A DNA stretch of 64,000 bases. Source: Mobula hypostoma. Lineage: Eukaryota. The notes beneath the pieces are model-generated. The model did not search any database. It saw only the letters and a list, made by a program, of their open reading frames with translations, and was not told the DNA's origin. The position numbers and the translations under genes were made by a program. Shown piece by piece: positions 7,674 through 58,899 of this stretch (position 1 is the first letter of the stretch; the number at the start of each line of letters is the position of its first letter). The stretch is taken from the NCBI RefSeq assembly GCF_963921235.1, contig NC_086097.1, positions 158,164,001-158,228,000 on the forward strand, in the 5' to 3' direction.

Positions 7674-8694
7674 GTAGGAAGCTTGGTTCCTTTTCTCTGG
7701 TTCTTTCGGCAAGATCCTTAAATCTGTGCTGTTTAGTGAGCAACAACCCATTTCTTTATATCCTCTAAGCTCTTATTAATGTTAATCACTCCCGTTAACT
7801 TTCCTCTCCACTTTCTCTACTCTAGAAAGAACAACTTCCAGCTGTACTCACAGCTGAAACTTCTCAACCCTGAACACATTTCAGTGAATCTCCTATATGT
7901 TCTTTTCCACACAACTGTAAGTGTTTTGTCCAAATTGAACACCAAATGGCTAGTAGCTATACATTGCTGTGGAACACCTTGAAGCCATGAAAGCGAATGT
8001 GGAAATATTTCCTTCAAAATCCACTGAGAAGTTGGATAGAACCATTAGTTTAACAGATTTGGCTGTCAAACAACATGATCACCATGCGCTCTCAGTATTC
8101 TATAGAGATTATCAGACTAGTTCATATGAACCAAATCTTCTGATTGACTGACTCATATTCCCAGAGGCAAGAGTGATAGCAGCTAAGCATGACCTGCCTC
8201 ACTGGTAGAGAACAAGACTGAAGGCTACAAGTTGAAAGTTGTATTAATGAACATAGTCAAATATTCTTTGACAGTGAAGTGAATTATTCAAACACCATGC
8301 CAGAAATTGACGTTTGTCAGCCCTACCACTTCAGTCTTATGCAGAGATTGAATAGGAACAGGGTTAAGGCATTCTTGTGGCCTTTCATTCATTCTTGTTG
8401 TGAGCTTTCTTTAAAATAATCCTTGACCCTGCTTTTTCCAATATCCCTTTGGTTATTAAAAATTCATCAATCCCTGATTTAAAGTAAATAGTGCTGGAAC
8501 AATTAATGATTGCAATACTGGGAGAGCAGCAGGTACCGGTGTTCTTTTTGAGAAAGGAAATGAGATACTGTAGTAAATTCAAGTGCAACATTTTCTATTT
8601 GTCTCTTGTATTATTTTTCAGTTGGAATTTTCCACTCATCTGTGTTGCTGCACTCTTTCATCTTTGTTACTGTACGAATACGCAAATTACAAAG

Positions 8695-16788: not shown

Positions 16789-17360
16789 CAAACACGAGGA
16801 AATCTGCAGATGCTAGAATTTCAAGCAACACACACAAAAATTGCTGGTGAACGCAGCAGGCCAGGTAGCATCTATAGGAAGAGGTACAGTCAACGTTTCG
16901 GGCCGAGACCCTTTGTCAAGACTAACGGAAAGAAGAGATAGTAAGAGATTTGAAAGTGGGAGGGGGAGATCTGAAATGATAGGAGAAGACAGGAGGGGGA
17001 GGGATGGAGCTAAGAGCTGGAAAGTTGATTGGCAAAAGGGATATGAGGCTGGAGAAGGGAGAGGATCATGGGATGGGAGAACTAGGGAGAAAGAAAGGGG
17101 GAGGGGGGATGCCCAGAGGATGGGCAAGGAGTATAGTGAGAGGGACAGAGGGAGAGTAAGGAGAGAGAAGAGAGGGAAAAAAAAAAAAAATCAAATAAAT
17201 ATATAAATAAATAACGGATGGGGTACGAGGGGGAGGTGGGGCATCAGCGGAAGTTAGAGAAGTAAATGTTCATGCCATCAGGTTGGAGGCTACCCAGACG
17301 GAATATTAGGTGTTGTTCCTCCAAGCTGAGTGTGGCCTCATCTTGACAGTAGAGGAGGCC
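16789..17360 (-). mobile_element. Penelope-like element 3' end (GIY-YIG C-terminus plus pLTR)
   Basis: Minus-strand translation of ~17265-17360 is GLLYCQDEATLSLEEQHLIFRLGSLQPDGMNI (PLE GIY-YIG C-terminus). A pyrimidine-rich 3' region and a pLTR with a hammerhead core follow. Confidence 0.85.
16888..16923 (-). ncRNA. Minimal type I hammerhead ribozyme motif (U3/A8 variant, GUU site)
   Basis: Minus strand reads agtc-TTGACAA-a-ggg tctcgg ccc-GAAAC-GTT-gact. Confidence 0.6.
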
Positions 17361-18411
17361 TTGTGTGTGTATGTGTGTTTTTTTTTGGTTTACATTCTCA
17401 ATCTCTAGCTACTTCTTTCATTGACCAAGTTGCCTTGTTTTCAGTTTATTCCTGTGGTTATCCCACTTCTACCCAATCCAAGACATTCTATTCCCTCTCC
17501 CTGCAGCTTAACTAGTTTCTTTTTGTTCCTTGCTAATTCTGAAGTTGGGTCTTCAGTGTGAAATACTATTGCTTCTCTTCCCATGGATGCAGCGTGATCT
17601 ATTGTGTATTTCCGGCATCTTCTGTTTTAATTAATACCTCTAGACGTTCCAACAGGTTATTTTGTGCTATGTGAGTTAATACAAGGTAAATGTTACTCAG
17701 AGGCTTGCATAAATGCATGTCACACAGCTGAGTAATAGAAATAATGACGCAGGCTTGCCTGTAACAATGAATTATTGAGAATGAGATGTGCAAATGATAT
17801 GTTTTAATGCAAATGGCATTGATATAAAGTGAGTGTACTTTCAAAGCACTTAAGCATGAAAGTTTCTCAATGTATTTTTTTTGTTAAAGGAAGGAATAAA
17901 ACATTTTCGTTCACAATGTACTCCACTGCTTTTTGGTGACAGTAAAGTTTTCTTTACCAGCCACGACATTGCCTCCTCTCACTTCTCCCTTCAGGTTTTC
18001 TTTTTTTCCCAGCTCTTTTCTAGAAGTGTTGGCATTTGGGAAAGTTTGTCTTGTGCAAAATCTCTTGAGCTGTGCACGAATAATGCCAGTGCTCTTATTC
18101 TGTGGGTGGACTCAGTATGTATCATCTCACAGAACAACGTGCCCTGAATAGAAATTGGCAGACAGACAGATTCTGTTCAGATGAGTCCCCCTCCTGGTGA
18201 TAATTTCAGGGTTGCCACCAACAGGCAATCTGTGCGAAACTGGAAAGACGTGTAGCCTGAAGGAAATAGGTGCACCTGGGAGAAATCAGCTGAAGAATAG
18301 CAGTGAGTTCCAGATGTTACCCACCATTGTGCAATGCAGTGTGTAACTGATAATATTAAAGGTTTTACTCCATCTCTGCTCAACCCCATGTAAGGGAACA
18401 CTGGGCAGTTA

Positions 18412-18628
18412 GAAATTAGATCTATTCTGAAGATGCCAAGCAAAGAGAAATTATTTGAAAGTGGTTCTCCAACAAAACCAGGGTAGGATTCAGTTAATTG
18501 CCCTGTGCACTAGCTCTGGGAAATCAGATCTATTCTGAAGATGTCAAGCAAAGAGAAATTAATTAAAGGTGGTTCTCCTTCAAAACCAGGGTAGGATCCA
18601 ATTAATTGCCCTTGTGCACTAGTTCTGG
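18412..18628. repeat. Tandem duplication, two ~108-bp units
   Basis: gaaatYagatctattctgaagatgYcaagcaaagagaaatta...caaaaccagggtaggatYca..taattgccc.tgtgcactag.tctgg occurs at 18412-18519 and 18520-18628 with scattered substitutions. Confidence 0.9.
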
Positions 18629-32943: not shown

Positions 32944-34165
32944 CTTTAGGACATAGTTGATGTGTTGGGTATTAATAGCAGCAAATCATAATCACAATAA
33001 ATAATAAAGCAATCTGCTTTAATGAATTGATTGGGGGAATTGAGGATGATGCCTCTGGATTGTTCACTCTTCCCAAGGTGACATTCTGGCACTCTCCAGA
33101 ACTCTGCTGAATTGTCCAATTTAGTCAGCTTTCAAAATGAGGTTAGCCTATAAGCTGCTAACTTTATTTGAATAAGGGGCTACTGTAGTTAAAATGTACC
33201 TGTGCCAGTTAAAACATCAGCAAGAAAATTGTTATCACTCTCAAAAAGTAGACAAATGGAATAAATAAATTTTATTTTTAGATCTGCTTTCTTTATTCCA
33301 GTACTTTTTATTGACTGAGCTTTTTTATGTGGTCTTGTACTTGAATGTCAAGTTTTAAGGATAATTGTCAAATTATGATGACTTTAAATCCTTGTATGCT
33401 TTGTTGCATTGTGAATTCACAACTTATTAGTCAGTGACTTCAGATTTTTTGCTACCCCAAGAAGGATAGTATTTTTCCAGTCTTTTTGTAGAAGGTTGTG
33501 TAGCATGGGATTTTTGGAATGGTAATAATTTGCATTTATATAATGCCTCCAAGAAAATTAAATATTCTGACGTGCTTTATAAGCTAGTATTATGTCGACC
33601 GGGAGTCAAATCATTTGCACAGAGGGAGGCATGTAGACAGAAAAACTAATAATGTGATAATGAATGTTGTAAAAAAAAAACAGTGCTAGAAATAGTAAGC
33701 AACTAAGTAGACAAACCTGCTGCGCTCAGGCTCAATGGGGCAGCTGGCCTATTCCTGCTCCTATATCTTATTGCCTACTAAAAAATAAAGTTTTACTTTA
33801 TCTGTCTTAAATGTGTGACTCTCTTTTAGATGGTAGCGTGACGTAGCGCGCCAAGGTTTAAAATGAGAAATTTTCGACGGTTCTTGTTTCAGTCGAAGCA
33901 AGCAGCTGAGAAGAAGGGAGTGAAGAAATCGGGTAGAAAAAGTCATTTTTTTTTAAACACTGCTTGGGGAGAAGGGTCTGCACTGCGCAGGTGCATGACG
34001 TAGCGCGCCAAGGTTTAAAAGCAGACCACCATCTACAGCGGCCATTGTCGGAGTGGACTGAGTCAGAGTGGGACGGCTTTGGCTCAACAGGCTTCGGTGA
34101 GAACAGGCAGAGGCCAGGGTAGGTTCCAGTAAGTTTTTTTGTCCAGATTGTTTAGAGTAGAGAGA

Positions 34166-35099
34166 ATGCCAGGCAGGATGTTGGAATGCTCCTCTTGCAG
34201 GATGTGGGAAGTCAGGGAGCCCTCCGGTGTCCCTGACAACGACACCTGCAAGAAGTGCATCCAGCTGCAGCTCCTAACAAACCACATTAGGGAACTGGAG
34301 CAGGAGCTGGATGACCTGCAGATCATTCGGGAGAATGAGGAGATTATAGATAGTTGCTACAGGAAGGTAGTTACGCCGAAGGAGCAGAGGACAGGAAATT
34401 GGGTCACTGTCAGGCGAGGGAAGAGGAAAGGGCAGGCAGAGCAGGGTTCCCCTGTGGCCATTCTCCTCAACAACAAGTATACCGCATTGGAATCTGTTGC
34501 GGGGGATGACTTACCTGGGACAAGCTGCAGTAGCTGGATCTCTGGCACTGAGTCTGGCTCTGCAGTGCAGAAGGGAGGGTGGAAAAAGAGGAGAGCAGTA
34601 GTGATAGGGGACTCGATAGTTAGAGGTGCAGATAGGAGGTTCTGTGGTCGTGACAGAGAATCCAAGATGGTTTGTTGCCTCCCGGGTGCCAGGGTCAAGG
34701 ATGTCTCTGATCGCTTGCATGACATTCTGAAATGGGAGGGTGATCAGCCAGATGTCGTGGTGCACATCGGTACCAATGACGTAGCAAGGAAGAGTGAGGA
34801 GGTCCTGGAGAGTGAGTATAGAGAGCTTGGTAGGAAGTTGAAAAGCAGGACCTCAAGGGTGGTAATCTTAGGATTGCCACCTGCGCTATGTGCCAGTGAG
34901 GGTAGGAATAGGATGCTCTGGAGGATGAACAAGTGGCTGAGGAACTGGTGTAGGGGGCAGGGTTTCAGATTTCAGGATCATTGGGACCTCTTCTGGGCAG
35001 GTGGGATCTGTATAATAGAGACGGGTTACACTCGAACTACAGGGGGACCAATATCCTTTCAGGGAGGTTTGTTAGTGCTATTGGGGAGGCTTTAAGCTA
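34166..35099 (+). pseudogene. CR1 ORF1p: zinc-finger/coiled coil plus SGNH/GDSL esterase; frameshift near the C-terminus
   Basis: CSSC...CKKC, leucine-rich LEQELDDL, VIGDSIVRG, CCLPGARV and HIGTND. The DGLH block (WDLYNRDGLHSN) lies in a shifted frame after ~34997. Confidence 0.85.
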
Positions 35100-35102
35100 G
35101 AT

Positions 35103-38026
35103 TTGCAGGGGGATGGGAACCAGAGTGCCAGAGCTGACAGTGTGGCTGGGGTGAAAATAAATCATGTTAAAAGTTTAAGCAAATCTGCTAATAGAAGGGT
35201 TGTGAGTGGTGGTAAAAATCTTCTGAGGTGTATATATTTCAATGCTAGGAGTATTGCCGGGAAGGCGGATGAGTTGAGGGTGTGGATTGACACGTGGAAT
35301 TATGACGTTATAGCAATTAGTGAAACTTGGCTACAGGAGGGGCAGGACTGGCAGCTTAATATCCCAGGGTTCTGATGTTTCAGATGTGATTGAGGCAGAG
35401 GAATGAAAGGCGGGGGAGTAGCATTGCTTGTTAGGGAAAATATTACAGCAATGCTCAGTCAGGACAGATTAGAGGGCTTGTCTACTGAGTCCTTATGGGT
35501 GGAGCTGAGAAACAGGAAAGGTATGGCCACATTAGTGGGATTGTATTACAGACCACCCAATAGTCAACGAGAATTGGAAGAGCAAATCTGCAGAAAGATA
35601 GCAGGCAACTGCAGGAAACATAAAGTTGTAGTGGTAGGGGATTTTAATTTTCCATATATTGACTGGGACTCCCATACTGTTAGGGGTCTAGATAGTTTAG
35701 AGTTTGTAAAATGTGTTCAGGAAAGTTTTCTAAATCAATATATAGAGGGACCAACTAGAGGGGATGCAGTATTGGATCTCCTGTTAGGAAATGAGTTAGG
35801 ATAAGTGACGGAAGTCTGTGTAGGGGAGCACTTTGGTTCCAGTGACCATAACACCATTAGTTTCAACCTGATCATGGACAAGAATAGATCTGGTCCTAGG
35901 GTTGAGGTTCTGAACTGGAAGAAGGCCAAATTTGAAGAAATGAGAAAGGATCTAAAAAGCGTGGATTAGGACAGGTTGTTCTCTGGCAAAGATGTGATCG
36001 GTAGGTGGGAAGCTTTCAAAGGAGAAATTTTGAGAGTGCAGAGTTTGTATGTTCCTGTCAGGATTAAAGGCAAAGTGAATAGGAATAAGGAACCTTGGTT
36101 CTCAAGTGATATTGCAACTCTGATAAAGAAGTGAGGGAGTTGTATGACATGTATAGGAAACTGAGTAAATCAAGTGCTTGAGGAGTATAAGAAGTGCAAG
36201 AAAATACTTAAGAAAGAAATCAGGAGGGCTAAAAGAAGACATGAGGTTGCCTTGGCAGTCAAAGTGAAGGATAATCCAAAGAGCTTTTACAGGTTTATTA
36301 AGAGCAAAAGGATTGTAAGGGATAAAATGGTCCTCTTGAAGATCAGAGTGGTTGGCTATGTGCGGAACCAAAGGAAATGGGGGAGATCTTAAATAGTTTT
36401 ATTGCGTCTGTATTTACTAAAGAAACTGGCATGAAGTCTATGGAATTAAGGGAAACAAGTAGTGAGATCATGGAAACTGTACAGATTGAAAAGGAGGAGG
36501 TGCTTGCTGTCTTGAGGAAAATTAAAGTGGATAAATCCCTGGGACCTGACAGGGTGTTCCCTCGGACCTTGAAGGAGACTAGTGTTGAAATTGCGGGGGC
36601 CCTGGCAGAAATATTTAAAATGTCGCTGTCTACAGGTGAGGTGCCGGAGGCTGGGAGAGTGGCTCATGTTGTTCCGTTGTTTAAAAAAGGATCGAAAAGT
36701 AATCCGGGGAATTATAGGCCGGTAGGTTTAACATCGGTAGTAGGTAAGTTATTGGAGGGAGTACTAAGAGACAGAATCTACAAGCATTTGGATAGACAGG
36801 GACTTATTAGGGAGAGTCAACATGGCTTTGTGCTTGGTAGGTCATGTTTGACCAATCTATTGGAGTTTTTTGAGGAGGTTACCAGGAAAGTGGATGAAGG
36901 GAAGGCAGTGGATATTGTCTACATGGACTTCGGTAAGGCCTTTGACAAGGTCCCGCATGGGAGGTTAGTTAGGAAAATTCAGTCGCTAGGTATACACGGA
37001 GAGGTGGTAAATTGGATTAGACATCGGCTCAATGGAAGAAGCCAAAGAGTGGTAGTAGAGAATTGCTTCTCCGAGTGGAGGCCTGTGACTAGTGGTATGC
37101 CACAGGGATCAGTGCTGGGTCCATTGTTATTTGTCATCTATATCAATGATCTGGATGATAATGTGGTAAATTTGATCAGCAAATTTGCTGATGATACAAA
37201 GATTGGAGGTGTAGTAGACAGTGAGGAAGGTTTTCAGAGCCTGCAGAGGGACTTGGACCAGCTGGAAAAATGGGCTGAAAAATGGCAGATGGAGTTTAAT
37301 ACAGACATGTGTGAGGTATTGCACGTTGGAAGGACAAACCAAGGTAGAACATACAGGATTAATGGTAAGGCACTGAGGCGTGCAGTGGAACAGAGGGATC
37401 TGGGAATACAGATACAAAATTCCCTAAAAGTGGCGTCACAGGTAGATAGGGTCATAAAGAGAGCTTTTGGTACATTGGCCTTTATTAATCAAAGTATTGA
37501 GAATAAGAGCTGGAATGTTATGATGAGGTTGTATAAGGCATTGGTGAGGCCGAATCTGGAGTATTGTGTTCAGTTTTGGTCACCAAATTACAGGAAGGAT
37601 ATAAATAAGGTTGAAAGAGTGCAGAGAAGGTTTAAAAGGATGTTGCTGGGACTTGAGAAACTCAGTTACAGAGAACGGTTGAATAGGTTAGGACTTTATT
37701 CCTTGGAGCGTAGAAGATTAAGGGGAGATTTGATTGAGGTATATAAAATTATGATGGGTATGGATAGAGTGAATGCAAGCAGGCTTTTTCCACTGAGGCA
37801 AGGGGAGAAAAAAACCAGAGGACATGGGTTAAGGGTGAGGGGGGAAAAGTTTAAAGGGAACATTGTGGGGGGCTTCTTCACACAGAGAGTGGTGAGAGTA
37901 TGGAATGAGCTGCCAGACGAGGTGGTAAATGCGGGTTCTTTTTTAACATTTAAGAATAGATTGGACAGATACATGGATGGGAGGTGTATGGAGGGATATG
38001 GTCCGTGTGCAGGTCAGTGGGACTAG
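35103..38026 (+). pseudogene. CR1 ORF2p (APE endonuclease plus RT); EN/tether region disrupted, RT segment 36377-38026 open for 549 aa
   Basis: YFNARSI, AISETWL, GGGVALLV, YYRPP and GDFNFP (endonuclease). NYRPVGLTS, QHGF, DFGKAFDKVPH, PQGSVLGPLLF and KFADDTK (RT). Internal stops at ~35373 and ~35802, plus frameshifts. Confidence 0.92.
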
Positions 38027-38653: not shown

Positions 38654-39518
38654 CAGTCGGCCCTCCTTATCCGCGAGGGATTGGTTCCAAAAAATGTGGA
38701 TGCTCAAGTCCCTTATTCAACCTGTCCTAATGCGGTGGACCTTCTTTAACCTGTCTCAGTGCGGTGGATACTAGGACCCGGCGGCGGAGCTTTGAATCCG
38801 CAGTGTTTCTGTTCACGAAAATAATCACGATCATGATTGAAAATAAAGTGGAAATAATAAAGCGATCAGAAAGAGATGAAACGCCATCGGTCAATGGAAA
38901 AGCGTTAGGCTACAGTCGGTCAACGATCGGAACAATTTTAAAGGATAAAGTGAGAAAGGCCCTGCCCCAATGAAAGCTACAATTATTACTACTCAACACA
39001 GTGGTTTAATTATTGGGTTTTGGGTTTTTGATCCTTCACATCAACCCGGCAGGGATGGAGAGCGCGCTTGGGAGCGGTCTGTCTCTGGATCGACCTCAGG
39101 AATTTCTGTTCCCGACCCGGCGCTGAAACATACGTTTCTCAAATGTTTTATATGCATAGAAAGATAAAATATATACTATATACCAAGATAAACATTTGAG
39201 TAAGTGACGCTAAATAGTATCGGATGTACCTGTTCTGACTTACTTAGTAAGAGATCTTCCATTTTTTTCGATCCTGATCCACAATAACCTACGCATATCC
39301 TCCCGTATACCTTAAATCATCTCTAGATTACTTATAATACCTAATACAATGTAAATGCTATGTAAAATAGTTGTTATACTGCATTGTTTAGGGAATAATG
39401 ACAAGAAAAAAAAGTTTGCACATGCTCGAACAAGTGCTGGAGAGCACTTCCGGGTTTTCTTGGTTCGCGGTTTGTTGAATTCGCGCATGTGGAACTTGTG
39501 GATAAGGAGGGCCAACTG
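38654..39518 (+). mobile_element. Tigger/pogo non-autonomous element (MER2-like) inside the L1 5' region
   Basis: TIRs cagtcggccctccttatcc / ggataaggagggccaactg, with TA on both sides (38652-53, 39519-20). Internal remnant IENKVEIIKRSERDETPSVNGKALGYSRSTIGTILKDK is a CENP-B/psq-type HTH. Confidence 0.9.
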
Positions 39519-39520
39519 TA

Positions 39521-40321
39521 CTGCTCTTCTGTGGCTGGGAAAAGAACCAAAGCTTCTGCAAAAGAAAGAGAAACAGAAGATGAATCCCCACTCACTTTGG
39601 ATTCAATGAGTGACTTCCTTAAACGGCAAAAAACAGAATTTTCCGAGGAGTTTCAACGACTTAATGGCAAATTGGATACAATCCAACAAACTTTAACTGA
39701 GCATGAGAACTAAATTCAAGAAAATACTGCAAAGCTGGTGACACTTGAAGAGGATCTTGAAGATACATTTAAACTCTGCAGAGAGTTATCCTTATCCAAT
39801 AAAAAAAGGTGAAAAGGATTATTAGTCTAGAAAATAGAAACAGGAGAAATAACTTGCGAATTCTGGGTCTTGAAGAATCAGTTGAAGGCGCTGACCCTAT
39901 GAACTTCTTTGCAAACTTTCTGAAATAGCTATTTCCTGTACAACTTCTATTCCACTTCTGAGCCGAAGCTCGATCGAGCATATCGCTCCCCGACTTCGAA
40001 GCCATTGTCGTCGGCAGCGAAACCCAGGTTGGTCATTCTAAGTTTACATGAATTCGTATATAGGACCTTTTAATTCGCCATACCTGTTGACAAGGATTGA
40101 TCGATTTCTATAGTTACAAGGTCAGATTTGTAGAAGATTATTCGCCTGATGTTATGAATGATTATATAAAATATAAAGAAGTGCTGTTGGAATTTTATAA
40201 TAAAGGATTTAAACAATTCCTTCGGTTTCCTGCCAGTCTGAGTATTGTTTTGAAGAACGGATTGAGAAAAAGAATAAAGTCGGGTGAAGACGCAAAGGAG
40301 TTTCTGAAGGATGAAGTCTAA
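39521..40321 (+). pseudogene. L1 ORF1p remnant
   Basis: Coiled coil FQRLNGKLDTIQQTLTEHE, then LENRNRRNNLRILGLEESVEG (~39827-39890), RFVEDYSPDV and LRFPASLSI. Confidence 0.8.
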
Positions 40322-40691
40322 AACTGTTATATTTCTTATTTGATCAGTTTTTTTCCTCTGTTCATATGAATTTGAAATAAGGTTTCCATAAACTTACGTT
40401 TTGGCTGTTCATATATTGTCTTTTGTTATTTTGTTGATACTTCTTTATTATATCCCTTTTTTGAGGCTTTATTTTAATATAGCTTTCTTTGAATTTGTTT
40501 TAACTGATCCTTTTATATTTTTGAATACTGAGTTATTTTTCTTTTTATGTTGTGTCTTGGTGTGGACATATTTGACCTTGAAGGACCAGAGTTTTTGTCA
40601 ACAGAATTTTTTGGGGAGGGAACTTAGTTGTTAGCTTGCTGACTGTTTATTGGTCAGCTTTCTGGTTTTGGGTGGGTGAGGGGCTAGAGCC

Positions 40692-40784
40692 TATAATAAA
40701 GGATTTAAACAATCCCTTCGGTTTCCTGCCAGTCTGAGTATTGTTTTGAAGAACGGATTGAGAAAAAGAATAAAGTCGGGTGAA
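40692..40784 (+). repeat. 93-bp dispersed duplicate of the L1 ORF1 end (source 40196-40288)
   Basis: tataataaaggatttaaacaat...aagtcgggtgaa is present at both sites with one mismatch. It abuts the PLE insertion. Confidence 0.92.
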
Positions 40785-40796
40785 TACTCTTCAGTT

Positions 40797-40832
40797 AGTC
40801 CTGACAAAGGGTCTCGGCCTGAAACGTCGACT
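40797..40832 (+). ncRNA. Minimal type I hammerhead ribozyme motif (G8A variant)
   Basis: agtc-CTGACAA-agggtctcggcct-GAAAC-GTC-gact. Confidence 0.7.
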
Positions 40833-41076
40833 GCACCTCTTCCTACAGATGCTGCCTGGCCTGCTGCGTTCACCAGCAACTTTGATGTGTGTTGCTTGAA
40901 TTTCCAGCATCTACAGAATTCCTGTTGTTTGCGTTTAATTTAACGACTGCAAAGCCTCTTCCGGTGATGCCTACACCGAAGAAGGTTAGATCCTCTCTTT
41001 GACGGGAGTTCAGTGAAACCATCTCTCACTGCTCCCCATTTGTAACTTCTTCGGCTCTTCAAAGCTTCCTTCAGTT

Positions 41077-41112
41077 AGTCCTGACGAAGGGTCTCGGCCT
41101 GAAATGTCGACT
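41077..41112 (+). ncRNA. Minimal type I hammerhead ribozyme motif with intact CUGANGA/GAAA/GUC core
   Basis: agtc-CTGACGA-agggtctcggcct-GAAAT-GTC-gact. Stem I and stem II pair; stem III can form only in a dimer (AUGU with wobbles). Confidence 0.78.
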
Positions 41113-41221
41113 GCACCTCTTCCTACAGATGCTGCCTGGCCTGCTGCGTTCACCAGCAATTTTGATGTGTGTTGCTTGAATTTCCAGCATCTGCAGAATT
41201 CCTGTTGTTTTTTTTTGGAAT

Positions 41222-44200
41222 ATTAATTTATTTAGTTTGAATGTGAAAGGGCTGAATCACCCCATTAAATGGAACAAAGTGTTTGCTTGTATTAAAAGCA
41301 CCCATTATTTTCTTACAAGAAACGCACATATGCAGCTGTGATAGCTTACGTTTTTTAACTTGGTTGAAAGATATGCAATTCCATTCTTCGTTTAATGCAA
41401 AATCACGTGGAATCTCTATTTTTGTAGATAATACAGTTTCCTTTGTTTAGCATAAAGTTGTTTCAGATCCTAATGGTCGATTTGTTATTGTATTAGGGAG
41501 TTTAGACAGTAAATTGATTGTTTTTGCTAATGTATATGCCTCCAATGTAGATGATCCAGGATTTTTTGAACGTCTATTTTCATTTTTGTCAGATTTGTGT
41601 ACTTGCTCTCTTGTGATGGGAGGAGATTTTAACTGCTGGTTAGATCGAGTGTTAGATCGCTCATCTGTTAAACCAGCCACACTTAATAAATCAGCTTTGT
41701 TTATCCAGTCCTTTCTAACTAAATGTGGTATAGTTGATGCTGGGCGTTTTCTTTATCCGACGGGCAGGGAGTATTCTTTTTTTCTCTCATGTCCATCATT
41801 CTTATACCTGGATTGAATATTTTTTTATTGACAGTCAAATGATTCCATTGGTTCGATTGATCGAATATAAAGAGATTGCTATTTCTGACCTCTCTCCTGT
41901 ACTTCTATCTTTAAATCTCCCTGGTACCATCCCTACAAGTAGATTTTGGCGATTTAATTTAACTCTGTTATCTGATGAGGACTTCTTAAAATTTATGGAG
42001 AATCAAATTACTCTTTTTTTTGAAGAAAATACGTTGGAAGAGACGTCTAGTCTTATTATATGGGATACTTTTGAAGCATATATCCGGGGCCAAATTATTT
42101 CTTATACTGCAAACATCATTAAAAAAGTTAACAAAGCGAGAAACAAACTAGCTAATCAGTTAAAACAACTGGACTATAAATATGCTTCGGTACCTGATCC
42201 TGAAACATATAAGAGATGTATTGAAACCAAAACTAAATATGATCTTGTTTTAACATATCCAATTGAAACCCAGCTTTTAAGAGATAGAAGTCAATTTTAT
42301 ATTCATGGAGATAAAACTGGTAAGCTACTGGCTAATCAACTGAAGCCATTTATAGCCAAGCGACAAATTAAAGAAGTATGTAAAATTAATGGGGACATGA
42401 CAACTGACCACATTGAAATTAATGACACTTTTAGGGAATTTTATTCCAAATTGTATAGTTCTGACTCTGTTAATGATAATATTGCAATGAATAATTTTTA
42501 GATCAATTAAATATTCCTAATCTTTCGATAGATGATCATAGGCAATTGGATCAACCTATTTTCCAGGAGGAAATTGCTCAGGCTATTCGAGAATTGCATT
42601 CTGGAAAATCCTCAGGACCCGACAGACTCTCTGGAGAGTTTTATAAGCCTTTTTCCTCCCTGCTTGTACCACACCTATGTTCTACCCTTACAGATTCCTT
42701 TAAGGTAGGAAGGTTACCACAGTCATTTTTCCAAAGCTTCCATTTCACTTATTCTCAAAAAGAATAAGAATCCTACTGAATGTTTTTGGTATAGATCTAT
42801 CTCTTTACTCAAATTTGATACTAAAATTTTATCTAAAGTGTTGGTTCGCAGACTTGAAAATATTATATCTTCTATAGTTTTGGATGATCAGACAGGATTT
42901 ATTAAAAATCGATATTCCCATTTTAATATATGGTGTTTGTTAAATGTTATGCATTCTCCATCTAATAAAATATCAGAATGTGTGATTGCCTTGGATGCGG
43001 AGAAGGCCTTTGACAGAGTTGAATGGAATTATCTTTTTACATCCTTAGAACAATTTAATTTTGGATCTAATTTTATTCATTGGATTAAATTATTTATTTA
43101 TCTCCCTCCGCTCCGGTTCGTACTAATCTTCAGAATTCTAAACCCTTTAAACTGCAACATGGAACTAGACAAGATTGTCCTTTGAGCCCTCTACTTTTTG
43201 ATTTGGTATTAGAACCCTTAGCAATTGCTTTTCGCGAGTCTAAAGATATTACTGGTATATTACGGAGAGGTACTATCCATAAAGTGTCGCACTATGCTGA
43301 TGACTTGTTGCTTTTTATATCTAATGTTACAACCCCTTTACCATTTGTGTTCCGTTTACTGACTAATTTTAGTCAGTTCTCAGGATATAAAGTAAATTTA
43401 CATAAGAGTGAACTGTTTCCTTTAAACAATTTAATACCAACTGATATTAACCTTTTCAAATTTTAAGAAAACAATTTACGCACTTAGGGGTTACAATTAC
43501 TAAGAATTATAAAGATTTAAGGAAAATTTTTTAACTTTAATGAATTATGTTTAAAAAAAACACTTTCTAATTGGTCGCCTTTCTCTTTATCACTGATTGG
43601 CGGAATTGATTCTATTAAAATTAATATCATACCTAAATTAATACACCTTTTTCAAGCTATGCCAGTTTTTATTACTATATCTTTTTTTGACTCTTTGGAT
43701 TCGATTCTTTCTTTCTATATATGGAAGAATAAAAAACTTCGTATAAATAAAGCTTACCTTCAAAAAACCAAACAGAATGTAGGCTTTGCCTTACCCAATT
43801 TTAGGTTATATTATTGGGCAGTTAATATACAAAATATTACATTCTGGATATATTACATTAACCATGAGAATTGCCCTATATGGGTTTCTTTGGAAGTCAA
43901 CCCTGTTATGAAATTTTCCATTATTTCATTACTTGGTTCCTCGCTTCCTTTATCTTTAAATAAACTAACTGACAATATGGTGGTCAAAAATACTTTGAGG
44001 ATTTGGTTACAGTTTAGAAAACATTATTGAGATTCTCCCCCTCGAATCCCATCTTTTCTAATTATTTTTTTAAACCGTCCTTAATTGACTTACCTTTTAA
44101 AGAATGGGATAGATTGGGTATTAAACGATTTCAGGATTTGTTTGATAGAGGGAATATCTCTTCTTTTGTGCAACTTTCAATGAAATTTAACCTTTCCAAT

Positions 44201-44964
44201 ACCCACTTTTTTCGATTCTTACAGATTAGAGATTTTTTTTAGGATATTAATTACATACATTTCCTACAAGTCCAGATAAGAATATAATAGATACAATTTT
44301 TAATCTGAAACCCTTTGACAACGGTTCAATATCTTACATTTATGGTCTGCTGTTGGGACTGAAAAAGGCCTCTTTAGATAAAATTAAAGAAGACTGGGAA
44401 AAGGATTTACAGATTTTCATATCTGAAGAGAGCTGGAAGATTATTTTAAAATTGATTAATTCTTCATCATTATGTGCTTATCATTCTTTATTACAATTCA
44501 AAGTGGTACGTAGAGTTCATATGTCTAACGACAAGCTCTCTTGTTACTACGCTGATATTTCCCCTTACTATGATAGATGTAGTAATGGAGTGGCCACACT
44601 AATTCATATGTTTTGGACATGCCGGAGCCTTGAAAAATTTTGGAAAGATGTATTTCAAACTTTTTCTGTACTTTTCAATGTTAGTTTTAAACCCAATCCT
44701 TTGACTGCCATGTTTGGTATTGTTGAGGATAGTGCTATAAAACTGAAGCCATCTAATTTGTGGGTATTGGCCTTTATGTCTCTTATGGCTAGGAGCGTGA
44801 TCTTGCTCAAGTGGAAGGAGGCAGCCCCGCCCACTCATGTTCAATGGCTATCTGATGTTATGTTGTGCCTTGATCTAGAGAAGATTCGTTGTTCAATTTC
44901 TGATTTTAAATATGATTTTCTGATGTTATGGGGACCCTTTCTGAGTTATTTTCATAATCTTTGA
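41222..44964 (+). pseudogene. L1 ORF2p remnant (APE EN, RT, C-terminal CCHC region), multiple stops and frameshifts
   Basis: SLNVKGLNHPIK, FLQETH, SDPNGRFVIV, NVYASN, MGGDFNC, QTGFIKNR, LDAEKAFDRVEW, SPLLFDLVLEPLA, YADDLLL and IHMFWTC. Confidence 0.9.
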
Positions 44965-45761
44965 ACTGTTATTAAAGTATGGATCTGAGCTATTATTATT
45001 ATAATATTACATGGTAAAGTATTTCCATTTTTTCTTTCTTTTTTTACCAACCAGATCATTTTTGTAGTGGGGGTAGATTTATTTTTAATAAAATACAATT
45101 ATTTTCACTTGTTATTTTTAATTTATTTCATTTCATAATTCAATCTTTTTTCTACATGGTTGATTTGGAATATGGGATACTGTGATCTTATTACTGTGAT
45201 TTAAATGTAGTGTAATTCATATTACTTGTATCCTTATGAATTTTGTATTTGTATTTATGCAATTTATATAATATTAATAAAAATACTGAAGGAGAAACTA
45301 GGCAAATTACACATTTTCCCCAGTTTAATCTTCATTGGCCCACTATCGTCAGGAAGGAGGTTTAGAAGCATCAGGACTGGATAACAGCTTCTTCACTCAG
45401 GCTGAGATGAATGAATACCCAGATCCGATTGAAGTCTTATAACTAGGACAGTGAGCTGTTTACTGTTTAAATACTGCAATTATCTAATCTATATTTAGTT
45501 TCTTCAATACAGTAGAGACCACATTCTGAACATAGAAATCTGTATACTGAATTGGAAGAAGTACAAGTGAGTCTCTGATTCACTTCAAATTCAAGTCTAT
45601 AATCATTTCTTGTATGACATGAAATTTATTTTGCGGCAGCAGTACAGTGTGAAGACATAAAATTACAGTAAGTTGCAAATAGTTTAATGGTTTAAAAAAA
45701 ATTAGAATAATGAGGTAGCCTTCATGGAGCATTCAAAAATTGAATAGCAGAGAGAAAGCGA

Positions 45762-49455: not shown

Positions 49456-52400
49456 GAAAATCCCTATTCCTGAAGGCTTAGTGGGGCCAAGTTCCAGTGT
49501 ATCACTACAGATCAAGGGTATTTATGCTAGAGCCATACTTTACACAGACTCTCAGGTTACTCTGCTGTACCATTCATGTTACAACCAGTATTCGACACAT
49601 TTACCATTGACGCCACTCAGTGCACTAGAGATCTGGAGTCTCGGTATGGATGGCTAGCCGTATGATGGTTACTTGTTATTGAAGCTGGAGTTTTCGGAGG
49701 CAAATGTGGGAGTAGCTGATGTCCTTGATACATTAGTGTTGGTTTGTCCGGACCCAGTCGAGAAGAGTGAATCTTCAATTCTTTTGGGAATGAATACTCC
49801 TATTCTGAGGAGGCTAATGGGAGCCTGCAAGGAGAAGGTGAGAAGCTTGGAGAAAGCTTTCTGAAAATATTGTCCATTCACCCTGTGTTCCGAGCTGCTT
49901 TTGAGGAAGTGTGTGGCCGCACTGGGTGGGATATTGAGCATAAATAAGGGACTGTGTGGTACACCCAGTCCAAACCGATTGTGTTACAGCCTGGGGATGT
50001 AGCTAGAGTGACAGCAAACCCCAAGTTTCCCGGAGTGTCTGATGCCGACGTCCCCGGTTTAAGACCATGAAGAGGATTAACGCTTACCTGCTGGGGTACT
50101 GGTGAGGCTGAGACTGCAGAAGCCCTCAGTTGTACAGGTGAACAAGATGACAGTGATTGTTGGGAAGACCTTGGAGAGGGAGGTCACCCTCAGGTGGGGG
50201 ATGCCAATGACACACCTTTCTGGTGACGGCAATGTCCAGTGTCCCGGTGAAACAAGCAGGGGAGAAACTCTCTCCAAAAAAGGGTAAGTTGACTGCCAGG
50301 TTATTCAACTTTGGGGACTCCCTGGTACCTGGAGGTTGAAAGAGGAGGTTGATAGAGAAGATGTTGAAACTAGGAGATGTCTTTTCTACTGTCGAGTTTG
50401 GTGTGGGTTGTTCCAAGGGCTCTCGCCACACCATCCAGGTGACAGAGGACACGCCGCCCAGAGAAAGGTTGTGGCAGCTGGTGCCTGCAGAGGTGGAGGA
50501 TGTTTGGCAGCATCTGTGGAAACTGAAAGAAGCCAAGGTCATCACTGAGTTCAGAAGCCCTGATGTGTCTCCAATAGTAGGTGCCAAGAAGGAGAATGGG
50601 AAGATACAGATGTGTGTGGACCATTGGACTCCGAACAGGTGTACAGTCCCCGGCTAGTATACGGTCCTGAGAATCGAGGATGTGTTGGCTTACCTGTGAT
50701 TTGCGAATTAGGTATTATCAGAAACAATGAGTGAGGCTGGCAAAGAGAAGACGACATTGATATGTCCTTCCAGTTTGAAAGGCTGCCCCAGGGCATATTG
50801 GGAGCCTCGATGACTTTCCAGCATGTCATAGAGAAAACTGTGGGGAATATGAACTTGTTTGAGGTGTTGGTGCACTTGGATGACCTCATTGTGTTCAGGT
50901 CCACTTCAGAGGAATATGTAGCAAGGCTACTGAAGGAGCTGGGCTGCCTGAAAGCTGAAGGGTTAAAACCTTCCCTGGACACGTGCCAGTTCTGCAAGAT
51001 GTCTCCCAACAATGTTGGGCACATAGGCTCTCAATATGGAGTAGCTACTGATCCGTCTGACATAGAGGTGGTGACCACGTGTCCAAGGCCCCCGACGGTG
51101 AGTGCCCTGCACTTGTTCCTCGGATTCAGTGGGTACTATTGGAGGTTTGTGAAGGGGCTACTCTAAAGTGAGTCGCCCTTTAAATCAGCTTCTGTGGGGT
51201 TACCCTCCCTTGGGGAAGAAAGGAAGGAGGACAAAAGAAGAAGATGGTAAAGATCATTTTAGCCCTTTAGAGCCTTTTGGAGCAAGATGGGATGCGAAAT
51301 CTGAAGAGGCCTTTCAGTTGCTGAAGGAGCTGATGACAAAAGTTCCTGTGTTGGCTTTTGCAGACCACCGATTGCTATATGTGTTGCATACAGACGCCAG
51401 CAAAGAGGGCTTGGGGTGTTCTGTATCAATATCAGGACACAGGGTTGAGACCTGTTGTGTTTGTCAACCGGAGTCTGTCAACCGTTTATTAAAATGACCC
51501 CACACTCCAGTTGGAGTTCCTGGTATTGAAATGGGTTGTGATGGATAAGCTAAGTGACTATCTATATGGTGCTAAGTTCGAGGTGAGGAAAGACAACAAC
51601 CTATTAACTTGTATCCAGACCTCGGCGAAATTGGATGCCACAGGCCAGTGTTGGTTGGCAGAACTGTCTGCCTGTAATTTCAGCCTGAAGTACTTACTGG
51701 CCGTGGAGTTGGAACATCGATGCTGACACATTGTCCTGACATGTGTATGAAATGTTGAACAGGGACGGAGAGTGGGAGAGTTTTCCTGCCTCTGGAGTTA
51801 AAGCATTGTGCCAGTTTTCCATCATGGGGAAGGCAGAGGAGAGTCGAGGGCAGAATTGAGCAGTAGATCATTTGGGAGCTTCTGATGGACTCGTTCCACA
51901 AGCTTACTGCAATCTGATTGCTCTGAAGACAAAGTAGTTGCCTGAATTGCGTCCTGGGGAAGTGGCCGCCACTCAGCCAAGTGACCCATGTATAGGTACC
52001 ATTTGGTCAGCGGTTGTGAAAGGGGACATCGCCCGAGCGGACAAGATGAAATACTCAGCGGTATCTCTACTACTGAGAGAATGGCCCAGATTGGAGCTGA
52101 GAAACCAGATTCTATACTGGGTCATGTCACCTCCTGACAGGCCTCAGCGTTCCCAGCTGATTCTGCCTGAGAAGTCTCAGAGGATTGTGTTGAAGTCACT
52201 TCATGATGATTCTGGTCATTTGGGGGTTGACAAGACTAATGGATTGGTCAGAGATCAGTTCTACTGGTCCCAAATGCAGCAGGAGATCGAAAAGTACTGC
52301 AGGTCGTGCATCCAATGTATATGGAGGAAGACGCTGCTTATGACGGTCGCTCTGTTCTCTCATTTACAGAGTGTGGGGCCACTTGATTTGGTGTGTATGG

Positions 52401-55020
52401 ATTTCCTATCAATAGAGCCTGATGCCAACAAAGTGGCAAATATCTTGGTTATTAAAGATCAAGGCACCAGATATGTGCAAGCCTTCCCTACCAAGGATCA
52501 GAGGGCATCCATCATGGCCAGAGTATTATGGGAGAAGTATTTCATTCATTATGGTCTCCTCAGGCAGATACATAGTGATTAGGCATGGAATTTCAAGAGT
52601 AAGCTCATACATGAGTTACTGAGCATGCTCGGAGTCAAGAAGTCGAGGACTATGCCTTATCACCCACAGGGTGATCCCCAGCCTGAGAGGTTCAGTTGGA
52701 CATTGCTGGACATGTTTGGAACCTTAGAGGTCAGTAAAAAAGAACGACTGGAGTCAACATATTGGGCATCTCGTCCACTGCTACAACCTTACACAGAATG
52801 AAGCTAATGGGTACTCGCTGTATTACCTGATGTTTGGGCATGAAGCGAGGTTGCCTATTGACCTCTGTTTTGGTACTGGCATGGAAGAAATTCACAGAGA
52901 TCTGTCTGAAGTATGTGTCTGATATGAGAAAGGAGCCGCAAAAGGCTTATGAACCAGCTGAGGTCTTGGCTACTAAGCAGAATCAAGGAAATAAGAGGAG
53001 GTATTGAATTGACTTTATTTCGTTCATCCTTCACATACATGAGGAGTAAAAATCTTTACATTACGTCTCTGTCTCAATGTCCAATGTGCAATTTATAATT
53101 ACTTGTAACAAATAGTATGTACAGTAGATATACAACAGAACAATAAACATAGCTTGGAAATACAATTGTGTTAGCATGAATTAATCTGATGGCCTGGTGG
53201 AATAAGCTGTCCCAGAGCCTGTTGGTCCTGGCTTTAATGCTGTGGTACCTTTTCCTGGATGGTAGCAGTTGGAACAGTTTGTGGTTGAGGTGACTCAGGT
53301 CCCCTATGATCCTTCAGGCCTTTTTTACACACCTTTCAGTGTAAATGTCCCGAATAGTGGGAAGTTTACATCCACAGATGCACTGGGCTATCTGCACCAC
53401 TCTCTGCAGAGTCCTGCAATTGAGGGAAGTACAGCTTCCATACCAGCCAGTGATATAGCCAGTCAGGGTGCTCTCAATTGTGCCCCTGTTGAAAGTCCTG
53501 AGGATTTGGGAGCTCATGTCGAACTACTTCAACTGTCTGAGGTGAAAGAGGCACCTCTTTTCACCACACAGCCGGTACGTACAGACCAAGTGAGGTCCTC
53601 AGTGATGTGTATACCAAGGAACTTATGTCTCTTCACCCTCTCAACCCCAGATCCATTGATGTCAATAATGATTAGCCTGTCTCCAATCCTCCTGTAATCT
53701 ATTACCAGCTCCTTTGTTTTTGCGACATTGAGGGAGAGGTCATTTTCTTGACAGATGACGACTTTTTAGGCTGCCTGGTTATTATTTGAAATAAGGCCAA
53801 TTAAAGTAGTATCGTCTGCTGATTGGAGATTTGGGTGGTGACACAATCATGGGTGTACTGAGAGTTAAGAAGGGGTTGAGGACACAGCCCTCGGGCTCCT
53901 GTGTTGAGTGCCAGAGGGGCAGAGGTAAGGGAGCCCACTCTTAATATCTGCTAGTGATCTGACAGGAAGTCCATGATCCAGCTGCACAAGGGAGGGTGAA
54001 GGCCAAGGTCCCTGAGCTTGTCAAGGCTGTAGGGAATTATGGTGTTGAATGCTGAACTGTAGTCCAAGAACAGCATTCTCACATAAGCATCCTTGTTCTC
54101 CGGATGTGTACGGATGGTGTTTAGAACTGTAGCTATTGCGTCATTTATTGATCGGTTATGTCGGTAGGTGAATTGTAGGGGTCCAGTGTGGGTGGTAGCA
54201 TGCTGCAGATGTAGTCCTTGACCAGCCTGTCAAAGCATTTGCTTATTATTGAGGTGAGTGTGACAGGCCGCAGTCGTTCAGATATGTTATCTTGGCCTGT
54301 TTTGGTACAGGAACAATGGTGGATAACTTGAAACAGGAGGGCACTCTACACTGGGAGAGGGAGAGATTAAAAATGCCTGCAAATACACCAGCCAGTTGTG
54401 CCGCACACACTCGGAGCACCCGCCCTGGGATGTCGGCCGGTTCTGCAGCCTAGCGACTGTCCACCCATTGGAAACATCTGCGAACCTCAGCCTCAGAGAT
54501 GACCAAGGTGGAGGTCACCTCTGGGGCTCAGTGTTGGCGACAGTGATGAGCATGAAAAAGGCTAGGCTCTTCTGGGAGAGAGGCAGTGACGTTGGCAGCA
54601 CCAATGCATTTAGCTTTGAAGTCTGCGAAGATGTACAGACCTAGTGATAAGCTGCGTGTGTTGTTGGTGGAGAGTTGTGTCTGGATCTTTTCCTTGTATA
54701 GTCGTTTTGCTGCCTCGATGACCTTGCTTAAATTGTAGCTGCATTTCTAGAGTATGATCAAAAAGTTAGGTTCTCCCAATTAATGCCTAGAGACTGAGTC
54801 CTTATAAAGAATTTGGGCTACCTGGGAAGCATAAGTTGGCTGACCGCGGGGCAGCTAACCCATATGTGGTGGAGAGACAGATGCCAAATATAACAGTTTT
54901 CCAGGTGAAGCCAGAGGATGGGAATAGACCTGTCAAGATTCTCCATCGTAACCACCTTCTACCTCTGGGGTAGGAGGTATGTGTTGACCCAGAGCCTGAC
55001 CTGGGCCCTACTCCTAGTAA
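49456..55020 (+). pseudogene. pol: Gypsy Pol remnant (protease, RT, RNase H, integrase), interrupted by a Rex1 copy
   Basis: PR: AILYTDSQVTLL (decayed LDTGSQ). RT: SPIVGAKKENGKIQMCVD, FERLPQG and VHLDDLIVF. RH: LHTDAS and EFLVLKWVV...DYLYG. IN: HDDSGHLG...CRSCIQC, DLVCMDF and IHSD. Confidence 0.88.
53005..54751 (-). mobile_element. Rex1/Babar LINE 5'-truncated copy inserted in the integrase C-terminal region
   Basis: Same 3' end as 48018-49455 (atccttcacatacatgag...aaaaatctttaca). Contains GTIESTLTGYITGWYG. Short duplication gtat at 53001-53004 and 54752-54755; removing the insert restores KRRYDQKVR. Confidence 0.88.
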
Positions 55021-56189: not shown

Positions 56190-56505
56190 CCCTTATGGTG
56201 TTGATTAGAAAAGGGTGTACACTAGAGGGTCATTAATGATGGATAATGCCCACTTAGTTCCCTGGATGGTGAGAAGGGAAGAGATGGAAGGATAAGTCTG
56301 CAATTGTCGAGGAAAGTGCCTCATGGGCAGGGGAAGATGGTTACTGGTGGGAATGGAAGGGTGAACCAGGAAGTTACAAATGAGATGATTCTTGTAAGGT
56401 TGAAAGAGGAAGATCTTTCTGGTGATGGAATCTCCAATGTAGTAGAAATTGCAGAGAGTCATCTGTTCAGTGTGGAGGATGGTGGGGTGAAAGGTTAAGA
56501 CCAAG
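56190..56505 (-). mobile_element. Old PLE remnant (region upstream of GIY-YIG)
   Basis: Minus ORF begins VLTFHPTILHTEQMTLCNF (cf. PLVLTYHP) and includes TYPSISSLLTIQGTK. Confidence 0.6.
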
Positions 56506-58899
56506 GGTGAGAGTTGTCATGACCTTGCTGGTTCACTCTCCTTGAATTGAGGGGCTAAGATGCTCAATTATAATGTAAAAGTCTGTTGGTGTAATGAAGA
56601 TTATAAATGTGGCCCTGCTATCATCATTCCTTACTTCAAATTAACAATTAAATGGAAAGCAAACGTGATTAATGCTCTATTATCTGCATCATTTTAAGAA
56701 AAAAGGATGCATTCTGAGACCTGCTTTCTTCATTTTAAGTGTGAATGAAATAAGAACTTAGCTCAGTTTTTCATCAAAAGAACCATTTTACTCTTCTCAG
56801 ATATTTTGACCTCTCAGATGAATCCAGACTTGTATTGTTTTATGTCGGTGTTAGATTTTGTTGGATAGATCTCTTGGGGAATGTCAGAGTATATTTTTAT
56901 TTGGTAAATGATACAATATAACTTTAGTTTAAGTTTTTATATTGTTGGAAAATAGTCTTGCTCTGCTTGAATTCTTGCAGTCCAATGTTATTTAAAGAAA
57001 CTGTGAAATTAATATAGATGTAACAAATATTTAGGTCAAGATGCACATTTTTTTCCCCAAGGATTTTCTTAAATGGATTTCTCTTTGCTTGACCTCCTGA
57101 TCCACTTTTAATTCTCCTTTATTCAATTATGACAGAGTCACTATATTTTTGATCTGTTTATCAAATAAATATCATTGTGCAAATATAAATTCAAACTGAA
57201 TGACATATGTCTGATTGCTTCATTTAGTTTCCTGAGTGTTTCAGCTTTATTTTCTGCTTGTGCCTTCCATTCTTTCTACTTTTTCACTCATTCAGTCCAA
57301 CCTTAAAAAGTATAATGTTATCAGAAATGAGATGCGGCAACACTTGAATGATAAAATAATTCGTGTGTTTATACAGAAGAAATGACATAATCTCACTGGA
57401 CGGGAGCTATATTATACTAGAGTGAAAGACCATTTATGTTTTCTTAAGTAAATTATTAGTTCATAGCAATTCAACTGAATACCCCGTTGAATAATGCAGA
57501 GATGCATTTGTTTTATGAAACAGTTGCTCAAGGGCTTTATACCGCTAGGAATTATGAACACAATGCAACTACAAAGAGGACCCTTTTTGGTCCAAATTGC
57601 ATGAAGAACAGGACATTTTTTAAAAATAAGTGCATCTTCATAGAGTGGCAAATGCAATTTTGTAACTTTGTCAATATTGTGACAGCACAAGTTGCAGATC
57701 TGCAAATCCTTGATTGGACATGGTAAACAGTTTTCGTCACCCACTGTGACTGTCATATAGCTCAGTAGCTGAGAGCTGCGAGGATGACAGTTATATGCGG
57801 GTTTGTGGCTGTAAGAGTTCAACTGCTTTGACTTCTAATTTTGCTTTAAAACGACAATTTCTAGAAGCTTAGTGCATTTTTGAATAGTCTGAACCACTCA
57901 TTCTCCATTGAAATAATTGTTCTTTATTTGGAACATGGAGGTGCCTTGTATTTCCTGGCAATTCTGAGCTCAGTTAGTTCATGTGAACTTGGATTTGCTT
58001 TGCTTTGTTTCCACTTAAGTGCTTTTGTGCACTGGAGTGGGTACTGTATCCCACTCAGAAGTACAGGTACCAGTATTGATCCTCTTGTCACTCTTATCTC
58101 AGTACATTAACTTGGCACAGATTAACTCGGTCAATATGACTTTGGAAAATCTTCCGGTTTAAGATGGCTCCTTTGAACCTCAGTGACTTCAGGCTGATGG
58201 CTAACAAAATAAGGACAACAACTAAATGCTTTGTTAACCACACTTTTTCTGGTAAACAGTCATTGCAAGTAATAGTCTGTAACTTCCCTTTGGACTTGGA
58301 GGCAATGATAGTGGAGAAAAATTCTGGTCTAATGCTGTTTAGTGTCTAAACTTTTGACTATCATGACATTCCTATCCCAATCAATCCCAGATAGGGGCAA
58401 ACTTTTCAGAGACAAACAGGGATTCAACTCTTGCTAAGAGATTTACTTGGACTCAATCTTAATGTAAATGTCCTGGATTCCATCTTGCAGTAAACTCTTA
58501 AGTCTTGCTCGTCACAAATCTGTGACTTATTTTGTAAAAGATGTGTGTTCAGTGAAAAACAAGAAAGCATTGGGAGAAGAGAAAAGTTCATAACAATTAA
58601 TGGGGAGGAAGTTCCCATCCTCATTTTCCACTTCTTGGAACAGGAGGGAGTATCTGTGAATGACAGAGGCAAAATAATTGTTGTCAATAAAGAAATCAGA
58701 TCACATTATAATACCAAATAGGGTTTCCCTATTGTTAGGGAAAGTCTTTGTCAAGGTCATTCTCAAATCTTTCCACCTAGTGATGAAAGAACTGTTTCCA
58801 AAACCATACTTGTGATTTGTTCTTGTGGAGGTATGATGGACATGATCTTCAAGATACAAGATTGTTTGATGCCACTTCCAATACACAAGTGTAAAGGAG

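Follow-up and report, generated by a model that had tools for sequence, protein, structure and literature searches.

Minimal hammerhead ribozymes (min-HHRs) have been described in the pLTRs of metazoan Penelope-like elements (PLEs) by Cervera & De la Pena 2014 (PMC4209133). They are of type I, lack loop 3, have a palindromic 15.2–16.2 segment, a bulged base before position 10.1 and a helix I of 4–5 bp, and are proposed to act as dimers; they are located in both pLTRs of an element, about 3 kb apart, and mostly occur as dispersed solo copies. The dimer principle for loopless hammerheads is set out there and in PMC6155905. Insertions of endonuclease-bearing PLEs (PMC8557442; PAc of Anolis, PMC11167929) are often 5′-truncated, partial tandems being the usual PLE structure and inverted neighbours standard (PMC8557442). 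Their pLTRs contain the hammerhead and have two 3′ end points separated by an optional tail of 30–40 bp (PMC8557442; PMC11167929), which has been tied to two internal start sites of RT (PMC11167929). Non-LTR retrozymes (PMC7229834; bioRxiv 10.64898/2026.07.22.740005) are derived from PLE pLTRs, carry a type I hammerhead in each unit and are known in one chondrichthyan genome (bioRxiv 10.64898/2026.07.22.740005). The same preprint recognizes a retrozyme by a tandem repeat of two or more consecutive units, all of which contain a complete hammerhead.

The locus described here is located in a 64-kb window, which is the whole stretch of DNA analysed. It shares the above features of the PLE min-HHRs, but its motifs lie 280 nt apart on one strand instead of ~3 kb, the conserved G10.1–C11.1 pair is replaced by G10.1–U11.1, helix II has 4 bp and both copies are mutated. 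The locus also resembles endonuclease-bearing PLE insertions (PMC8557442; PMC11167929) in being a 5′-truncated partial tandem with inverted neighbours, in having two 3′ end points that delimit an optional tail and in its hammerhead within the pLTR, but here the ORF is almost entirely lost from between the pLTRs, and a 96-nt segment of the host LINE is duplicated at the left junction. With the non-LTR retrozymes the locus has in common a unit of ~280 nt, a GC content of 48%, one type I hammerhead per unit and the derivation from a PLE pLTR; in contrast to them, it comprises 1.5 units, is negative in a TRF search and has one complete core, and its hammerhead is minimal, not canonical (PMC7229834; bioRxiv 10.64898/2026.07.22.740005). 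Judged by sequence, the locus belongs to the PLE min-HHR kind, with the exception of G10.1–C11.1, and its cleavage is a prediction. No shark or ray entries were present in the two supplementary files of PMC4209133 that were searched. Similarly, no publication on the ray or shark pLTR motif specifically was found in the literature searched, which excluded most subscription journals, and the chondrichthyan retrozyme families of the 2026 preprint may already include this family.

Two hammerhead motifs in a direct repeat

A repeat finder detected a 142-nt direct repeat at 40789–40930 and 41069–41210, with a spacing of 280 nt and 97% identity. The four differences between the copies are all transitions, and two of them are CpG transitions inside the ribozymes. 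The first pLTR copy (40789–40930, forward strand) is 5′-truncated 8 nt upstream of stem I and includes the 3′ tail; the second (41065–41210, forward strand) begins 12 nt upstream of stem I and stops at the second 3′ end point of the family, followed by a T run. With ~134 nt of internal element sequence between them, the two pLTRs make up 1.5 units. Each contains a minimal type I hammerhead motif on the forward strand, at 40797–40832 in copy 1 and at 41077–41112 in copy 2. In copy 1, the 5′ arm of stem I (40797–40800) is followed by the core (40801–40807), and, beyond stem II, by GAAA (40821–40824), C-GUC (40825–40828) and the 3′ arm of stem I (40829–40832). The layout of copy 2 is the same, shifted by 280 nt. 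Copy 1 has the substitution G8A at 40806, whereas copy 2 has intact CUGACGA and GAAA segments, including G8 (41086), and a U at position 15.2 (41105). A G10.1–U11.1 pair is present in both (40809/40820 in copy 1).

A 28-nt pattern of the motif had four matches in the 64-kb window and none in 100 dinucleotide shuffles. A min-HHR descriptor applied strictly matched once in the window, at copy 2, compared with a mean of 0 in 30 first-order Markov simulations; when up to one core mismatch was permitted, four matches were obtained, compared with a mean of 0.13 (maximum, 1) in 30 Markov simulations, and copy 1 was recovered with G8A as its single core mismatch. These data confirm that both hammerheads exceed chance and lie at the coordinates given above. 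An earlier note on this DNA had placed two motifs 280 bp apart and had described the core of copy 2 as intact and copy 1 as carrying G8A, and both descriptions were borne out. Of the motif searches that it had suggested, the descriptor succeeded with the strict match at copy 2, but the Rfam covariance models did not: no hammerhead family was reported at E ≤ 1, neither motif was detected, and the sole match in the window was unrelated.

In the local minimum-energy fold of stem II, A40808 is bulged and G40809 pairs with U40820, giving a helix II of 4 bp. Because stem II takes the register of the family, with the bulge between positions 9 and 10.1, a G–U pair stands in place of the conserved G10.1–C11.1 in both copies. 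The stem II of the earlier note is thus present, but in a different register. Helix III is the palindrome ACGU in copy 1 and AUGU, with a wobble, in copy 2, so that the ACGU stem III previously read in both copies applies to the first of them. A helix I of 4–5 bp and a helix II with a bulged base before 10.1 are present here. In an alignment of 10 of the 14 pLTR matches in the window (the other four were excluded as partial or weak), the stems were 85% paired, compared with 19–48% for slid registers, and three of the 10 copies had G–C at 10.1–11.1. Double-sided changes were observed at 0 of 10 stem pairs, which is a weak test given few, decayed copies from one window. G8A was found in three of the four close pLTR copies. 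At 16888–16923 (reverse strand), C3U is combined with G8A, which corresponds to the U3–A8 core variant described in PMC4209133; here it may reflect chance decay, considering that the stem is also altered and that G8A occurs alone in two other copies.

The Penelope-like family, its tail and its spacer

The pLTR-like repeat gave 14 nhmmer matches at E ≤ 0.01 in 64 kb, both focal copies included. The reference copy of the family (16790–17423, reverse strand) contains the C-terminal end of a GIY-YIG endonuclease, followed by a pLTR with 88% identity (16790–16935). The peptide preceding this pLTR was identical at 33 of 39 aa (85%) to the C-terminal end of P0001, a protein attributed to a ray by its source, and Pfam gave no match for the 38-aa GIY-YIG end. 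P0001 contains the RT motif YIDD, a GIY-YIG match just under the Pfam cut-off and a Cys-rich linker, whose Cys motifs were judged by eye. Its 63 longer relatives carry RT annotations, and two that were scanned had an RVT_1 match and weak GIY-YIG matches. Since the same pLTR follows a P0001-like C-terminus with RT- and GIY-YIG-containing relatives, the repeat is assigned, on sequence grounds, to the pLTR of an endonuclease-bearing PLE in a cartilaginous fish. The pLTR was seen directly downstream of the GIY-YIG ORF at 16790–17423, and the focal locus is without this ORF. A zinc-finger-like linker between RT and endonuclease is a mark of Neptune and Nematis (PMC8557442), and the linker suggests that the element is probably of the Neptune type, although the Cys motif is common to Nematis too. 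The family identity, and the nested dimer described below, uphold the proposal of the earlier note, in which the motifs were taken for minimal hammerheads of Penelope pLTRs that depend on dimer formation. Older, degenerate pieces of PLE ORFs were detected by tblastn at 27–935, 45479–45667 and 56238–56564 (all on the reverse strand), the first of which covers part of the RT region.

Contigs from four public sequencing runs (4/24) were mapped on 40292–41068. In run X1, the summed contig depth, which is not a copy number, was ~4e6–1.5e7 over the pLTR, 6e4–1.6e5 over most of the spacer and 0.7–7e3 over the host LINE, and the remaining three runs followed the same order, pLTR > spacer > LINE. Depth falls in the last bin (41046–41068), a drop that was disregarded as a possible edge effect. 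Two of the runs are presumably of RNA, but as contigs they were given no weight with regard to expression level or transcript ends. The pLTR DNA patterns matched 0 loci in viral_contigs and 0 in two scans of metagenome_contigs.

The segment 40897–40930 (forward strand) corresponds to the optional Penelope tail of 33–40 nt and is delimited by the two positions at which family members preferentially end on the 3′ side. The loose contig ends listed clustered behind 40895–40897 in all four runs, and behind 40930 (X1) and 40936 (X16); window copies stop at each of the two end points, copy 2 at the second. On the 5′ side, contigs with loose ends before 40789 run on into normal pyrimidine-rich upstream sequence. 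Three of the four close copies (those starting at 40789, 41065 and 7558) start 8–12 nt upstream of stem I, and none starts at the cleavage site; RT may repeatedly stop or jump at this point, or transcription may begin there. Skips, jumps and strand switches among pLTR and spacer pieces were seen in the joints listed (15 of 37). The window also contains a head-to-head (inverted) pLTR pair at 7451–7677, joined by 27 nt that are pieced together from short, inverted segments of the 5′ end of the pLTR itself. The tail is present in one arm, whereas the other stops at the first 3′ end point.

The spacer (40931–41064, forward strand) is a repetitive, internal part of the element, which is found behind the pLTR tail elsewhere in the family as well. 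It was covered by contigs in all four runs, and joints from pLTR to spacer (40890 to 40946, 40898 to 40989 and 40899 to 41004) were found in contigs. The in-frame stop of the spacer at 41000 was missing from 79–100% of the contig depth. The spacer is probably the start of the PLE ORF, as these observations suggest, but its homology is below significance: the spacer peptide (with X at the stop) had no homolog among longer proteins, and its comparison with PLE N-termini by an N-terminal HMM was not significant. Against a PLE profile built from 17 of 63 full-length PLE proteins, the spacer ranked outside the top 12 of 79,310 windows, and in pairwise comparison with the N-termini of eight of the 63 proteins its best score was reached in 78 of 1000 shuffles. 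Four weak phmmer matches of the spacer were all to unrelated repetitive proteins and were rejected as chance.

Dimer geometry and predicted cleavage

Because loop 3 is absent, helix III can form only between copies. The two copies can be drawn as a nested, unknotted dimer with all helices, in which helix III is formed by 40824–40827 with 41104–41107. Since A15.1 in either copy is paired with U16.1 of its partner, each core would act on the site of the opposite copy, a rule that we derive here from base pairing. The inner junction consists of core 2 with its stem II and of stem I 40829–40832/41077–41080, and its cut would fall between 40828 and 40829. The outer junction consists of core 1 with its stem II and of stem I 40797–40800/41109–41112, with the cut between 41108 and 41109. 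The inner junction has an intact core, but also two wobbles, U15.2–G16.2 and G10.1–U11.1, and the outer cut depends on the G8A core of copy 1.

C3–G8 is a base pair of the hammerhead core (PMC3088659). G8 is also proposed to supply the general acid of the hammerhead, and G8C abolishes activity in a PLE hammerhead (PMC11167929). No publication measuring the effect of G8A was found in the literature searched, which excluded most subscription journals; we predict that core 1 has lost its activity through this substitution. With G8A in core 1 and core 2 intact, at most one cut would be expected, between 40828 and 40829. An RNA end at 41109 and a 280-nt product would both need the damaged core, so no 280-nt unit would arise by cleavage of a dimer in cis. 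These considerations run counter to the release of a ~280-nt unit anticipated in the earlier note, each core addressing the partner's site and the outer cut requiring the G8A core, and to an RNA 5′ end at 41109, as intact core 2 can address only the site between 40828 and 40829. Excision of the proposed 280-nt RNA is probably beyond this copy; any transcript of the locus would undergo, at most, a single slow cut between 40828 and 40829.

In a nearest-neighbour model, forcing the fold cost +17.7 kcal/mol for the inner junction, +13.5 kcal/mol for the outer junction and +22.7 kcal/mol for the full dimer. Shuffled spacers had a folding cost as low or lower in 38 of 60 cases, for the inner junction and for the full dimer, and since shuffled spacers cost the same, the fold costs are not evidence on their own. 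The helix III pairs had a probability of 0.0 in the unconstrained ensemble, nearest-neighbour energies taking no account of tertiary contacts. Even intact min-HHR dimers cleave weakly (PMC4209133), and eight of nine Xenopus dimers showed no cleavage (bioRxiv 10.64898/2026.07.22.740005). A PLE hammerhead has been described as protein-assisted in vitro (PMC11167929).

Origin of the locus within a host LINE

The insertion is placed between the degenerate ORF1 (39500–40321, forward strand, from translations) and the degenerate ORF2 (41219–44964, forward strand; an endonuclease-like start, then RT with an RVT_1 match at 42709–43182, E 5e-16) of a LINE, which by its motifs we take to be L1/Tx1-like. 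The pieces of host ORF1 and endonuclease had no Pfam match, and ORF1 had no match in the PDB. At the left junction, 40692–40787 (forward strand) is a 96-nt duplicate of 40196–40291, the end of LINE ORF1, with two differences, and the source of this patch lies 496 nt upstream. The normal form of the LINE (40784 continuing at 40292) was present in all four runs. One X1 contig crosses the new left junction (40617–40744) with 0 differences, which rules out an assembly artefact, bearing in mind that X1 may be the source sample. No target-site duplication of at least 8 nt was found at the insertion. The frame of host ORF2 resumes at 41219 without a visible start codon, which suggests a small target deletion. 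The divergences within the two repeat pairs, 4/142 and 2/96, are compatible with one age. Elsewhere in the window, 34133–38026 (forward strand) is a younger LINE with long open frames (320 and 566 aa) and an RVT_1 match (E 5e-32), presumably CR1-like by its motifs, and 50126–52582 contains pol fragments (RT and integrase-like) of what we assume to be a Gypsy-like LTR retrotransposon.

A TRF search of 39500–42500, with scoring slightly unlike that of the 2026 preprint, returned 0 rows and therefore no array. A local tandem duplication of the 280-nt unit was ruled out by the differing flanks and the 1.5 units. At 18412–18628, the window contains two head-to-tail copies of ~108 nt, 90% identical and unrelated to the pLTR.

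We consider it probable that the locus is a defunct partial-tandem insertion, lacking internal sequence, of a massively amplified PLE, probably of the Neptune clade. RT would have started at the distal tail site (41210), copied the pLTR until the hammerhead had been passed (41065) and switched to element RNA ~134 nt downstream of the tail (41064), after which it would have copied the spacer and the pLTR again, as far as 40789. The cDNA would have been joined to the target by means of the 96-nt patch, for which the host LINE ~500 nt upstream served as template, all in a single event. The hammerheads would thus be passengers of the pLTRs that came to lie 280 nt apart instead of ~3 kb through loss of the ORF, and that decayed afterwards, chiefly at CpG sites.

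What weighs against this explanation is that a pLTR–spacer–pLTR order ending at the tail site is also the outcome of 1.5 rounds of RT on a 280-nt circle, and the outline of the locus fits such a course. The locus could then be the fossil of a circle-derived, retrozyme-like mini-element belonging to a small non-autonomous family: an ancestral deleted PLE with two intact hammerheads would have released the RNA 40829–41108, which would have circularised and been copied by PLE RT from the tail site. The unit of ~280 nt is within the 150–450 bp range of animal retrozymes (PMC7229834), those of one chondrichthyan have a mean of 363 bp (bioRxiv 10.64898/2026.07.22.740005), and the damaging changes at 40806 and 41105, neither of which the two pLTRs share, may thus postdate insertion. 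We nevertheless regard this origin as unlikely. No array was found by TRF, and no spacer sequence was present to the left of copy 1 or to the right of copy 2. No joint from 41068 to 40789 was found among the joints listed (15 of 37) in contigs of the four runs; contigs crossing the stretch ends were few (23/73,484, 36/49,138, 9/3,955 and 1/4,062), and one X16 contig that matches 40934–41062 then departs from the window sequence with 18 differing letters. The 280-nt unit folded as a circle was 58% paired, with z = −1.7 compared with 200 shuffles, and the spacer gave the dimer no advantage. In addition, the type I hammerheads of the known animal retrozymes are for the most part canonical rather than minimal (PMC7229834). 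The kind of array by which the preprint recognizes retrozymes is absent from the locus, where TRF gave 0 rows and copy 1 has G8A. The resemblance to a retrozyme drawn in the earlier note is accordingly weakened by the 1.5 units, the empty TRF result, the lack of a start at the cleavage site and the absent folding advantage, and further by the spacer, which is repetitive element sequence and lies behind the pLTR in genomic copies other than this one.

It is also improbable that a full-length element with two pLTRs later lost its ORF of ~2.5–3 kb at the DNA level, or that two separate insertions are adjacent here. In favour of this reading, pLTR 1 passes without a break into internal sequence, as the 5′ pLTR of a complete element would, and nicking within the element's own pLTR has been proposed (PMC11167929). 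Against it, copy 1, copy 2 and the 7558 copy have left ends that lie within 4 nt of one another, which a recurrent RT stop or jump point explains more easily than a random deletion, and no target-site duplication of at least 8 nt was found. That the pair is still functional, cutting a read-through transcript as a cis dimer at both sites to yield a 280-nt RNA, is very improbable: although the nested dimer can be drawn with all helices, core 2 is intact and assistance by protein (PMC11167929) means that poor folding need not exclude activity, the outer cut needs a core whose C3–G8 pair is broken by G8A, the other junction has two G–U wobbles next to its core, even intact min-HHR dimers cleave weakly (PMC4209133), and helix III has a probability of 0.0.

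Considered alone, the locus interpreted as a partial-tandem PLE insertion matters little, being one decayed copy of a very abundant known type of element. If the mini-element origin were true, the locus would be a fossil of the proposed transition from PLE to retrozyme and genomic evidence for min-HHR cutting in vivo. Cutting by PLE minimal hammerheads in vivo is so far a proposal: PMC11167929 reported no RNA ends at the hammerhead site and no requirement for cleavage in vitro, and the question could be approached statistically in a genome with so many copies. In a loopless dimer, a single intact copy is expected to cut its partner, a rule that screens for retrozymes should apply to such pairs.
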